Below, piece by piece: positions 11,897-35,630 of a stretch of DNA of 46,754 nucleotides; positions within the stretch are counted from its first letter, which is position 1; the number at the start of each line of letters is the position of its first letter. The notes below the pieces were generated by a model. The model worked only from the letters and a program-made list of their open reading frames with translations. It did no database searches and had not been told where the DNA came from. A program made the translations under genes and the position numbers. Source of the stretch: Candidatus Paceibacter sp. Its GTDB lineage: Bacteria > Patescibacteriota > Minisyncoccia > Phycocordibacterales > GCA-2747955. The DNA is taken from the NCBI GenBank assembly GCA_014237915.1, contig JABACC010000012.1, positions 1 to 46,754 on the forward strand, written 5' to 3'.

Positions 11897-12472
11897 ATGG
11901 ATGAAAAAAATTTAGCAGTAGGTAGACAACAATTTGCACATTGTGTATTTAATCACAAAGTACAAGAAAAGGCTGTCGAACGAGTCAAAAAAATAAATAC
12001 AAAGATCAAGTGGGCTAATATTGTTGTTTTAGCGATAGTTATTGTCTTTCTTGTATTGCAAATATCATATCCTGAAAATTTTGTTTTCGGTGAAATTTCA
12101 ATCTCCATTACTATTTTTGAAATACTATTTCTTTTTATTCAAAAAGAATTTTCTTTTGAGGATAAAGAAAAAGAACATAAAAAAATTGCTTTAAACTTCT
12201 TAAAATTAAGAAATAAATATATGAATTTTATAACTGATATAATGAATGAAATCAATGAACAAGAAATAATTTCAAAGAGAAACTTACTATCTGAACAATA
12301 TGAAATTATTACTAGCTTGGCTACACAAACAGAAGAAGATGATTATAAAAGTGCCCAAATAGCACTTTTAGGTAAAAATAATATAAGTGAAGAATACACA
12401 TGGAGCGAAGAAGAAATAGATAGTTTTTTGCCAAATGAATTAAAGTTATTTAAAAAACAAGATTTGCTATAA
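11897..12472 (+). CDS. SLATT-family 2TM effector (SLATT_4-like)
   Basis: RQQF...FNHKVQEKA, two TM helices, then EHKKIA...LRNKY...D; starts 7 nt after the NTase. Confidence 0.8.
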   Translation: MDEKNLAVGRQQFAHCVFNHKVQEKAVERVKKINTKIKWANIVVLAIVIVFLVLQISYPENFVFGEISISITIFEILFLFIQKEFSFEDKEKEHKKIALNFLKLRNKYMNFITDIMNEINEQEIISKRNLLSEQYEIITSLATQTEEDDYKSAQIALLGKNNISEEYTWSEEEIDSFLPNELKLFKKQDLL

Positions 12473-12479
12473 TTTTTTT

Positions 12480-13673
12480 ATGAAAATTTTAGCCATTGAA
12501 ACATCTTGCGACGAAACTGCAATTTCACTTGTGGATTTTAAATCTGCAAATAAATTTGAAATTATTTTTGATTCGGTTTTATCACAAATTGAAATCCATA
12601 AAAAATACGGAGGAGTTTACCCAAAACTTGCCAAAAGAGAGCACGAAGAAAACCTTTTTCCGCTTTTTTTTAAAACTTTAGAAAAATCTGGATTTTTAAA
12701 AAAAAGGAAAAAACAAATAAGTTTTTCAAAAAATGAAGAAAAAATTTTAAATAAGATTTTTTTTAAAAATTCTCAAAATGAAGAAAATCTGAAAAAATTT
12801 TTTCTTCAATATCAAAAACCAAAAATAAACGCTTTAGCTGTAACTTACGGCCCTGGGCTTGAAATTGCTTTATGGTCTGGATTTAATTTTGCAAAAGCTT
12901 TTTGCCAGCTTTATAAAATAGATTTTATTCCAGTAAACCATATGGAAGGCCATATTTATTCAAGTTTAATTTTTAAAAAAAAGAGGAATAGTTTTTCTAT
13001 TTTAAAAACACCTTTTCCAAGAGCATCTGTTTTAATTTCTGGCGGGCACACAGAAATTGTTTTAGAAGAGAAAAATTTTAAATATAAAAAAATCGGAAAA
13101 ACTTTAGACGATGCTGTGGGCGAAGCTTATGATAAATCAGCAAGACTTTTAGGAATTGCCTATCCGGGAGGCCCTGAAATTTCAAAACTAGCAGAAGAGT
13201 ATAAAAAAATAAAAAACAAAAAAGAAATTTCTTTTTCTCTTCCTCGCCCGATGATAAATTCAAAAAATTTAGATTTTTCTTTTTCTGGTTTAAAAACCGC
13301 CGTTTTAATGGAAGTAAAAAAAAGAAAAAAATTAAATAAAAATTTTAAAAGAGAGCTTTCTTTTGAATTTGAAAACGCTGTTTCTGAGGTTTTAATAAAA
13401 AAAACAAAAAAAGCTTTAGAAAAATATAAAATAAAATCTTTAATTATTGGCGGTGGAGTTTCTGCAAACAATAATTTGAGAAAAAATTTTAAAGCTTTAG
13501 AAAAAGAATATAAAAATTTAAAAGTTTTTCTGCCAGAAAAAAAATACACAGGAGACAACGCTTTAATGATTGCTGTTGCAGGATTTTTTCGTTATAAAAA
13601 TAAAAATTTTCCAAAAAATGTAAAAAAAGTTGATGGAAAACTAAACCTTGAAAAAATTAATAAAAGTTTTTAA
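12480..13673 (+). CDS. tsaD: tRNA N6-threonylcarbamoyltransferase TsaD
   Basis: LAIETSCDET, VNHMEGH, SGGHT, DDAVGEAYDK, YPGGP, DNALMIA; ~40-aa insertion after the first helix. Confidence 0.97.
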   Translation: MKILAIETSCDETAISLVDFKSANKFEIIFDSVLSQIEIHKKYGGVYPKLAKREHEENLFPLFFKTLEKSGFLKKRKKQISFSKNEEKILNKIFFKNSQNEENLKKFFLQYQKPKINALAVTYGPGLEIALWSGFNFAKAFCQLYKIDFIPVNHMEGHIYSSLIFKKKRNSFSILKTPFPRASVLISGGHTEIVLEEKNFKYKKIGKTLDDAVGEAYDKSARLLGIAYPGGPEISKLAEEYKKIKNKKEISFSLPRPMINSKNLDFSFSGLKTAVLMEVKKRKKLNKNFKRELSFEFENAVSEVLIKKTKKALEKYKIKSLIIGGGVSANNNLRKNFKALEKEYKNLKVFLPEKKYTGDNALMIAVAGFFRYKNKNFPKNVKKVDGKLNLEKINKSF

Positions 13674-13722
13674 ATTATTTAATTTTTCAATAAAAACTTA
13701 AAATGTGGTAAAATTTTCCCTT

Positions 13723-34783: not shown

Positions 34784-34812
34784 TATTTTTTTATTTTGGT
34801 ATAATGTTTCAT

Positions 34813-35169
34813 ATGAATATAGATAAACAAAAAGCTCATCTAGAGGAGCAAAGAGAAAATTTATTAAAAGATATTGAAAAAATTGGAGTAAAAGATAGTT
34901 CAGATCCAGGAGGATTTATTGTAAAAGAGGAAAAAGATTATGCTCCAAACGATGTTAATGATGATATAGATCAAGCAGACGAACAGGAAATGATTTTAAC
35001 AAACAATGCTCTTTTAGGAGATTTAGAAACCAGATTAAAAAATGTAGAAAAAGCTTTGGAAAATATCGAAAATGGAAATTATGGAAAATGTGAAAAATGC
35101 CAAGGAGAAATTGAAGGTGAAAGAATAATGGCAAATCCGTCTGCAAATACCTGTATTTCTTGTATGTAA
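34813..35169 (+). CDS. DksA/TraR C4 zinc-finger protein
   Basis: DDIDQADE coiled-coil tip, ALENIENGNYGKCEKC...ER..ANP.A.TCISC. Confidence 0.88.
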   Translation: MNIDKQKAHLEEQRENLLKDIEKIGVKDSSDPGGFIVKEEKDYAPNDVNDDIDQADEQEMILTNNALLGDLETRLKNVEKALENIENGNYGKCEKCQGEIEGERIMANPSANTCISCM

Positions 35170-35201
35170 TTTTTTCAAAACGCTTGTGTTATAATTTAAA
35201 C

Positions 35202-35630
35202 ATGAGATTTGAGATTCCCCAGTTTATTGAAGTTGAAGATAAAGTCGTAGGGCCTTTTACTTGGAAGCAATTTTTATATATTGCTGGCTCAGGAGGCCTT
35301 GCTTTTTTATTTTTTACTTTTTTAGGAAGTTTAAGTGTTATTATAAAAATTATTTTAAGTGCTCCTTTTGTGGCGGTTGGTCTTGCTTTTGCTTTTTTAA
35401 AAGTTAATGAAAGACCGTTTATTTTCTATATAGAATCTTTTTTTTATTATTTAATTTCAACTAAAAAATATCTTTGGAAAAAAAAGGATGAAAATTTACA
35501 AAACAGCTCAGATGAAGATTTTTTTGCTAATATTTCTCAAGCAAAAATTGAAAAAAATATTCCTCAAATTTCAAAATCACGCCTAAAAGATATTGCTTGG
35601 TCTTTAGATATCGGAGAATATAATAGATAA
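35202..35630 (+). CDS. PrgI family protein (VirB3-like)
   Basis: MRFEIPQFIEVEDKVVGPFTWKQF, two TMs, KVNERPF; ATG 35202 follows a -10 element. Confidence 0.85.
   Translation: MRFEIPQFIEVEDKVVGPFTWKQFLYIAGSGGLAFLFFTFLGSLSVIIKIILSAPFVAVGLAFAFLKVNERPFIFYIESFFYYLISTKKYLWKKKDENLQNSSDEDFFANISQAKIEKNIPQISKSRLKDIAWSLDIGEYNR

Follow-up and report, generated by a model that had tools for sequence, protein, structure and literature searches.

Extended -10 promoters six nucleotides before ATG point to widespread leaderless mRNAs in a Candidatus Paceibacter genome that has lost the anti-Shine-Dalgarno sequence

How does a bacterium start translation at genes that lack a Shine-Dalgarno (SD) sequence and whose start codons follow a promoter element almost directly? 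The question is raised by contig JABACC010000012.1 of Candidatus Paceibacter sp., which was analysed over its whole length of 46,754 nt (hereafter the window; contig C13 of a 15-contig genome of 567 kb that is 96% complete and has 28% GC) and in which the element TGnTA(T/A)AAT, or its core TATAAT, repeatedly ends exactly 6 nt upstream of an ATG. Transcription by RNA polymerase normally sets in about 7 nt downstream of the -10 hexamer, with a preference for a purine that follows a pyrimidine, and would consequently begin on the A of the ATG at such an element. From our point of view, the most plausible explanation is that TGnTA(T/A)AAT represents the extended -10 element of a housekeeping sigma-70-type promoter and that its placement 6 nt (less often 7 - 9 nt) before ATG, at about 125 - 150 of the approximately 525 genes (about a quarter to a third), would give rise to mRNAs with no leader or with a leader of 1 - 3 nt. 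Such mRNAs would be translated without SD pairing, presumably by direct binding of the ribosome to the 5'-terminal AUG, whereas operon-internal genes would depend on A-rich, G/C-poor and weakly structured start regions instead. We assign this explanation as a whole a probability of roughly 85%.

In the window itself, the eight genes for which the initial annotation had claimed a -10 hexamer followed by 6 nt and ATG all carry this arrangement (Table 1), and the larger gaps that it had listed are likewise present, with 7 nt at the gene at 5938 and the dksA/traR-type gene at 34813, and 8 nt at typA. The spacers are A/T-rich and contain no SD sequence, and the gene names given earlier agree with the Pfam matches. 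Since the Pfam domains of the window proteins begin at residues 2 - 17, there is little room for start codons further downstream; in the case of tsaD, the N-terminus MKIL is also kept in the orthologues.

The histogram of motif-to-start distances that had been put forward as a check was computed for the whole genome, with spacing defined as the number of nucleotides between the end of the -10 element and the A of the ATG, and it displays a peak at 6 and a shoulder at 7 - 9 over flat controls. When the search proceeds outward from TGnTAnAAT to an ATG that opens an open reading frame (ORF) of at least 100 codons, a procedure that involves no choice of gene start, 68, 29, 10 and 15 cases are found at spacings 6, 7, 8 and 9, compared with 0 - 1 at each spacing from 0 to 5 and about 0 - 4 beyond 12. 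For TATAAT, the number at spacing 6 is 69, vs the 68 for TGnTAnAAT, with a shoulder at 7 - 9 and almost none at 5 or below. The gene-centred count, for which the gene set consisted of crude ORF calls (longest ORF, first ATG; n = 523), gives 71, 28, 10 and 14 ORFs with a TG-extended -10 element at the same four spacings, 1, 0, 0, 0, 0 and 0 at spacings 0 - 5, and 0 - 9 (mostly 0 - 3) at larger ones. Without the TG requirement the numbers rise to 99, 36, 21 and 33 over a background of about 10. Altogether, an extended -10 element at spacings 6 - 9 is present at 123 - 130 of about 524 genes. As a minor feature of the distribution, spacing 9 is commoner than spacing 8 (33 vs 21 cases; 14 vs 10 with TG), which forms a secondary peak one codon beyond 6.

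The controls behave differently. An extended -10 element at spacings 6 - 9 is found at 0 of 1684 internal in-frame ATGs and at 3 of 1368 non-coding ATGs, with a flat profile in both sets, and the reversed pattern produced a single match in the genome search vs 75 for the forward pattern. Furthermore, the codon found 6 nt past an extended -10 element near the 5' end of an ORF is ATG in 75 cases, the next commonest codon occurring 7 times, while later in ORFs an extended -10 element placed in this way was encountered 4 times in 122,904 codon positions.

The anatomy of the element is that of a promoter. In the logo of the spacing-6 class (n = 99), the hexamer T-12, A-11, T/A-10, A-9, A-8 and T-7 is conserved and is preceded by G-14 (76/99), T-15 (82/99) and T-17 (72/99), and the A/T-rich spacer favours T at -1 before the A at +1. 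The -35 region of the same 99 sites contains no conserved signal. Since the 404-aa primary sigma factor, which has regions 1.2, 2, 3 and 4, keeps region 3, the TG extension can be read. The element thus resembles the extended -10 (TGn) promoters of Escherichia coli and Firmicutes in the TG one base 5' of the hexamer, the upstream T (TnTGn), the absence of a conserved -35 hexamer and the presence of sigma region 3; it differs from them in that it is apparently the default promoter type here and is positioned such that the 5' untranslated region would be removed. The initial annotation had proposed that many genes are transcribed individually and from -35-independent promoters. The first of these terms is too strong, as many of the genes concerned head tightly packed operons, and the second is something we infer from the missing conservation of the -35 region in an organism whose sigma factor retains region 4. 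A classical two-hexamer scan (-35/-10) of the region was dropped as evidence because its 94 matches vs 76 +/- 9 in shuffled sequence do not discriminate; the information lies in the extended -10 element and its fixed distance.

The genomic distribution of the element is also that of a promoter. The same motif stands 9 - 35 nt upstream of about 15 of the 35 tRNA genes, which are not translated. It precedes 3 of 43 genes (7%) that overlap the upstream gene or follow it within 5 nt, vs 35 - 46% of genes that follow a gap of 13 - 120 nt or have a divergent neighbour. Genome-wide, there are 584 extended -10 motifs, of which 316 lie outside coding sequence, and their distances to the gene are 6 - 9 nt in 123 cases, 10 - 15 nt in 25, 16 - 30 nt in 29 and 31 - 60 nt in 29. 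The 123 represent about 56% of the extended -10 elements located no more than 100 nt upstream of genes, from which it follows that roughly half of the recognisable gene-proximal promoters would be of the leaderless type. Coding regions, taken on both strands, hold the other 268 motifs, which is less than their share of the genome would lead one to expect, yet still a large number; these motifs could serve as internal or antisense promoters.

Additional support comes from terminators. A strong terminator hairpin ends 13 - 71 nt before the ATG in 14 of the 123 genes of the extended -10 class vs 0 of 103 operon-internal genes, so that a long leader is physically excluded for those 14 genes. Several G+C-rich perfect hairpins share the core GTGCGG(G/C)CCC...GGG(C/G)CCGCAC (window 15588-15616; locus L001, 30-60 and 1268-1300), and these terminators with a common core at unrelated loci look like a dispersed hairpin family.

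The translation apparatus, for its part, shows no SD system. Inspection of the 16S rRNA, which had likewise been suggested as a check, revealed that CCUCC is gone: the 3' end reads GGAUUAUUUCAAAG, where the Rfam SSU model ends in GGAUCACCUCCUUU according to the alignment. SD-like 4-mers at 4 - 18 nt upstream occur at 5% of genes vs 11% of control windows and are hence depleted. Neither bS21 (PF01165) nor uL1 (PF00687) had a match in the 96%-complete genome, while in the control genomes PF00687 was detected in 14 of 14 and PF01165 in 6 of 14. As the 16S rRNA has no CCUCC, bS21 is absent and SD-like strings are depleted before genes, SD pairing is not available to this organism at all. The genome does encode initiation factor IF3 and a short S1 protein (363 aa, four S1 domains). 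Between -10 and -2, most positions upstream of the operon-internal genes are A in 60 - 73% of cases, with G and C each below 5%, and folding is weaker in the first 40 nt of ORFs than in windows further along. A search for enriched k-mers upstream of the non-leaderless genes returned stop-codon and AT-rich words only.

The arrangement extends far beyond this genome. The best matches of TsaD (54 - 63% identity) come from Paceibacteria/Parcubacteria-type metagenome-assembled genomes of the Patescibacteria, or candidate phyla radiation (CPR), and of the 75 loci of tsaD orthologues whose ATG could be aligned, 15 have TGnTAnnnT at exactly spacing 6 and none has it at 5 or less, at a local GC content of 31 - 53%. 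The pattern itself was found in all 41 relatives, and its counts lie well above those of the reversed pattern in nearly every one (one genome had 2 vs 1); genomes of the same family contain 36 - 192 matches vs 0 - 5 for the reversed control. In about 200 genomes sampled across the phylum, the signature likewise exceeds the control in nearly all, typically with 10 - 40 vs 0 - 3 matches; families f45 and f73 display it weakly. Judging by these counts, leaderless starts look phylum-wide. CCUCC is also absent from the 16S rRNA of all 30 relatives of the same order with a readable tail. These tails are not random, since nearly all of the 30 keep a U-rich tract that ends in UUC and is followed by an A-rich part, mostly as GGA(U/A)nAUUUCAA, which suggests that the 16S tail without anti-SD (loci L001 [G000:C4] and L082-L111) is still under constraint.

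For a gene-centred comparison, 400 kb were taken from each of two comparators. A genome of the same family with 41% GC and without anti-SD has an extended -10 element at spacings 6 - 9 in 21% of its genes and no SD enrichment, whereas the element is found in 8% of the genes of the comparator from another class, whose anti-SD is intact and whose SD-like strings form a clear peak by position (20% of genes vs 11% of controls). Because the relative with 41% GC still reaches 21%, AT-richness is not the cause. With about 21 - 25% of genes in the family without anti-SD vs about 8% in the comparator that bears it, the leaderless share looks about threefold higher where the anti-SD has been lost, a comparison made gene by gene in three genomes only. 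The raw pattern counts across the phylum show by themselves no correlation between anti-SD loss and leaderless share, and in other families of the same order they are similar to those of anti-SD-bearing classes.

The claim that the -10 elements are placed such that transcription begins at the A of the ATG, or within 0 - 3 nt of it, is thus supported by every available test, namely the lower bound at 6 nt, the logo, the tRNA genes, the depletion inside operons, the terminators, the tsaD orthologues and the loss of CCUCC. Several points nevertheless weigh against it. The start site is extrapolated from an E. coli-type RNA polymerase to a CPR bacterium that has not been cultured, and how the ribosome is recruited is likewise inferred. 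The 7 - 9 nt classes may yield leaders of 1 - 3 nt rather than none. About 40 of the 187 plain -10 matches at spacings 6 - 9 are expected by chance, and all shares are approximate given the crude ORF caller behind the percentages. Lastly, about 24 ORFs have good SD-like strings (aaggag, gaggagg, taggagg) despite the missing anti-SD. These strings lie 5 - 9 nt before the ATG of short and GC-richer ORFs (0.33 - 0.48 GC; for example window 32837-33457, minus strand), which often have signal-peptide-like N-termini; a few of the ORFs are probably spurious, as they lie over RNA genes.

The alternative that survives best is that the promoters are real and the transcripts nevertheless mostly leadered, the spacing being a by-product, either because another promoter further upstream is used, because of read-through, or because the true start codon lies further downstream. 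It has in its favour that the start sites discussed here are predicted from sequence, that some co-directional gaps measure 7 - 12 nt and read-through is therefore likely to add leadered copies, and that about 100 extended -10 elements lie 10 - 100 nt upstream of genes, which implies that leadered promoters also exist. A by-product would, however, hardly account for an approximately 20-fold enrichment of ATG exactly at the predicted start and not at spacings 0 - 5. A start codon further downstream conflicts with the early onset of the Pfam domains and with the conserved N-terminus of TsaD, and the terminators upstream of 14 genes leave no room for long leaders. We thus regard mostly leadered transcripts as unlikely, with odds of about one in ten.

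A second alternative has to be taken seriously because the AUUAU of the 16S tail (E. coli positions 1531-1535) is exactly complementary to the AUAAU of UAUAAU: the motif could act in the RNA as a re-tuned SD site that pairs with the altered tail 6 nt before the AUG. ATAAT is, moreover, enriched upstream of genes outside the 6 - 9 nt class as well. The conserved T-17, T-15 and G-14 have, however, no complement in the tail, and the spacing is far tighter than SD spacings and ends in a hard lower bound at 6 nt, which is to be expected if the AUG has to be part of an RNA whose first nucleotide lies 7 nt past the -10 hexamer, and which is not expected of an SD site. A pairing site would also be needed most before operon-internal genes, where the motif is depleted, and would be of no use before tRNA genes, where it is found. 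The sequence upstream of starts does not form energetically better duplexes with the 16S tail than control sequence does, nor is anything complementary to the G/C-containing part of the altered tail enriched there, as the search with the 5-mers TGAAA, TTGAA, GAAAT and CTTTG shows. Finally, the motif does not co-vary with the 16S 3' tail, which disfavours this explanation: the relatives have different tails (GGAUCAUUUC, GGAAUAUUUC, GGAAUCAUUC, GGAUUAAUUC and others) and all keep TGnTAnAAT-N6-ATG, and many genomes of other classes keep GGAUCACCUCCUUU and display the signature nonetheless (37 vs 1, 39 vs 0 and 31 vs 0 matches). A re-tuned SD site thus appears very improbable. Chance in a 28% GC genome rich in TATAAT-like strings and ATG, for which one could invoke that the classical consensus scan barely exceeds its shuffles and that AT-rich DNA hence easily matches promoter consensus, is already refuted by the flat profiles at internal and intergenic ATGs, the reversed pattern, the equal peak in the 41% GC relative and the tsaD orthologue loci of up to 53% GC.

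Beyond the leaderless promoters proposed for this genome, we consider the odds slightly better than even for a broader scenario. According to it, a clade of Paceibacteria at the level of the order has abandoned SD pairing and initiates translation in two SD-free modes, and leaderless initiation already existed throughout the phylum and expanded about threefold when the anti-SD was lost. About half of the transcription units would be leaderless and would start from compact modules of an extended -10 element and ATG, optionally preceded by a terminator, while the remaining units would be served by A-rich, unstructured start regions or by coupling. The scenario builds on the fact that all 31 genomes examined have lost the anti-SD and on the absence of bS21 and uL1 in this one.

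Leaderless initiation as such is a known mechanism. In the group C genomes of GeneMarkS-2 (mainly Actinobacteria such as Mycobacterium tuberculosis, and Deinococcus-Thermus), a Pribnow box is located 6 - 8 nt before operon-first starts, in roughly 25 - 50% of transcription units and with a strong preference for ATG (Lomsadze et al., 2018, PMC6028130). The present genome is similar in the position of the -10 box before operon-first starts, the substantial share of units and the preference for ATG. It differs in that the remaining genes, which use SD sites in group C, have neither an SD signal nor an anti-SD to pair with, in that the promoter is strongly TG-extended, and in that Patescibacteria are not among the listed lineages. 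We are therefore dealing with a known mechanism in a new lineage, set apart from classical group C by the lack of an SD system for the remaining genes. The latter have A-rich, G/C-poor and weakly structured start regions like those of Bacteroidetes and Flavobacteria, for which SD-independent initiation has been described (Lim et al., 2012, PMC3457768; Baez et al., 2019, PMC6847099); unlike most Bacteroidetes, which keep the anti-SD and have mostly leadered mRNAs, this organism has lost the anti-SD and has a large leaderless class in addition.

A subgroup of Parcubacteria that lacks the anti-SD has been reported, with 16S rRNA devoid of CCUCC(U), uL1 absent and bS21 often absent (Tsurumaki et al., 2022, PMC9297842), and this genome resembles it in the lack of all three. 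That report describes the loss and offers no initiation mechanism; a candidate is the arrangement of promoter and ATG presented here. In other reduced genomes anti-SD loss is known as well, and leaderless translation has there only been suggested as an alternative. Full-text literature searches yielded no paper that reports leaderless starts in Patescibacteria, CPR, Parcubacteria, Saccharibacteria or TM7x, and none that links the anti-SD loss of Parcubacteria with leaderless initiation. The present analysis offers a concrete and testable answer to the question, left open by the report of the loss, of how these bacteria start translation. It would add a large and deep-branching phylum to the bacteria that use leaderless mRNAs, which bears on whether this mode is ancestral. 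In practical terms, gene callers that rely on SD sites will misplace CPR starts, and a promoter-spacing model in the style of GeneMarkS-2 group C should do better; for expression cassettes in the genetic systems now emerging for Patescibacteria, a design rule would read TGnTATAAT, 6 A/T bases, ATG.

Table 1. Promoter elements, start codons and related features in the window (element to ATG, or the feature itself; positions count from the first nucleotide of the window).
Feature	Positions	Strand	Arrangement	Remark
358-aa gene at 5938	5922..5940	+	TGTTAAAAT + 7 nt + ATG	
tRNA-Val	10370..10378	+	extended -10 TGTTAAAAT, 35 nt upstream	
tsaD	12465..12482	+	TGCTATAAT (12465-12473) + TTTTTT + ATG 12480	
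typA/bipA	13706..13725	+	TGGTAAAAT + 8 nt + ATG 13723	GTP_EFTU domain from residue 2
Terminator hairpin	15588..15616	+	13 bp, G+C-rich, then T-run; 55 nt before HIT ATG	closes upstream transcript
HIT-family gene	15657..15674	+	TGATATAAT (15657-15665) + TTTTTT + ATG 15672	Pfam
118-aa gene	21725..21742	-	TGCTATAAT (21742-21734) + TTTTTT + ATG 21727	
289-aa gene	21761..21775	+	TATACT + 6 nt + ATG 21773	additional to the initial annotation
311-aa gene	22684..22701	+	TATAAT + 9 nt + ATG 22699	additional; near-leaderless class
706-aa gene	23630..23644	+	TATAAT (23630-23635) + 6 nt + ATG 23642	without TG extension
249-aa gene	26248..26265	+	TGTTATAAT (26248-26256) + TTTTTT + ATG 26263	
650-aa gene	28156..28172	+	TATAAT + 8 nt + ATG 28170	additional
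AI-2E family transporter	30153..30170	+	TGTTAAAAT (30153-30161) + 6 nt + ATG 30168	Pfam
tatD	33592..33609	+	TGATAAAAT (33592-33600) + 6 nt + ATG 33607	Pfam
DksA/TraR zinc-finger gene	34797..34815	+	TGGTATAAT + 7 nt + ATG 34813	Pfam
PrgI-family gene	35187..35204	+	TGTTATAAT (35187-35195) + 6 nt + ATG 35202	Pfam
tRNA-Leu	46453..46461	-	extended -10 TGTTAAAAT, 11 nt upstream	

Leadered versions of the arrangement are present in the window as well, each with an A/T-rich leader and no SD sequence: TGTTATAAT lies at 4476-4484, 18 nt before ATG 4503, and again at 17184-17192, 12 nt before ATG 17205, and TGTTAAAAT lies at 10308-10316 on the minus strand, 10 nt before ATG 10297.

At two loci, the preceding gene on the same strand has its TAA stop codon inside the TATAAT of the next gene (12470-12472 for tsaD and 23632-23634 for the 706-aa gene), which leaves a gap of 7 nt between stop codon and ATG; this arrangement occurs in 8 cases genome-wide, and a promoter that overlaps the upstream ORF in 15. 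In the divergent spacer of 45 bp between the 118-aa and 289-aa genes (21728-21772), two leaderless-type promoters are placed back-to-back. Of the 80 divergent gene pairs in the genome, 18 carry the motif in both directions, with a clustering of the shortest spacers at 45 - 48 bp.

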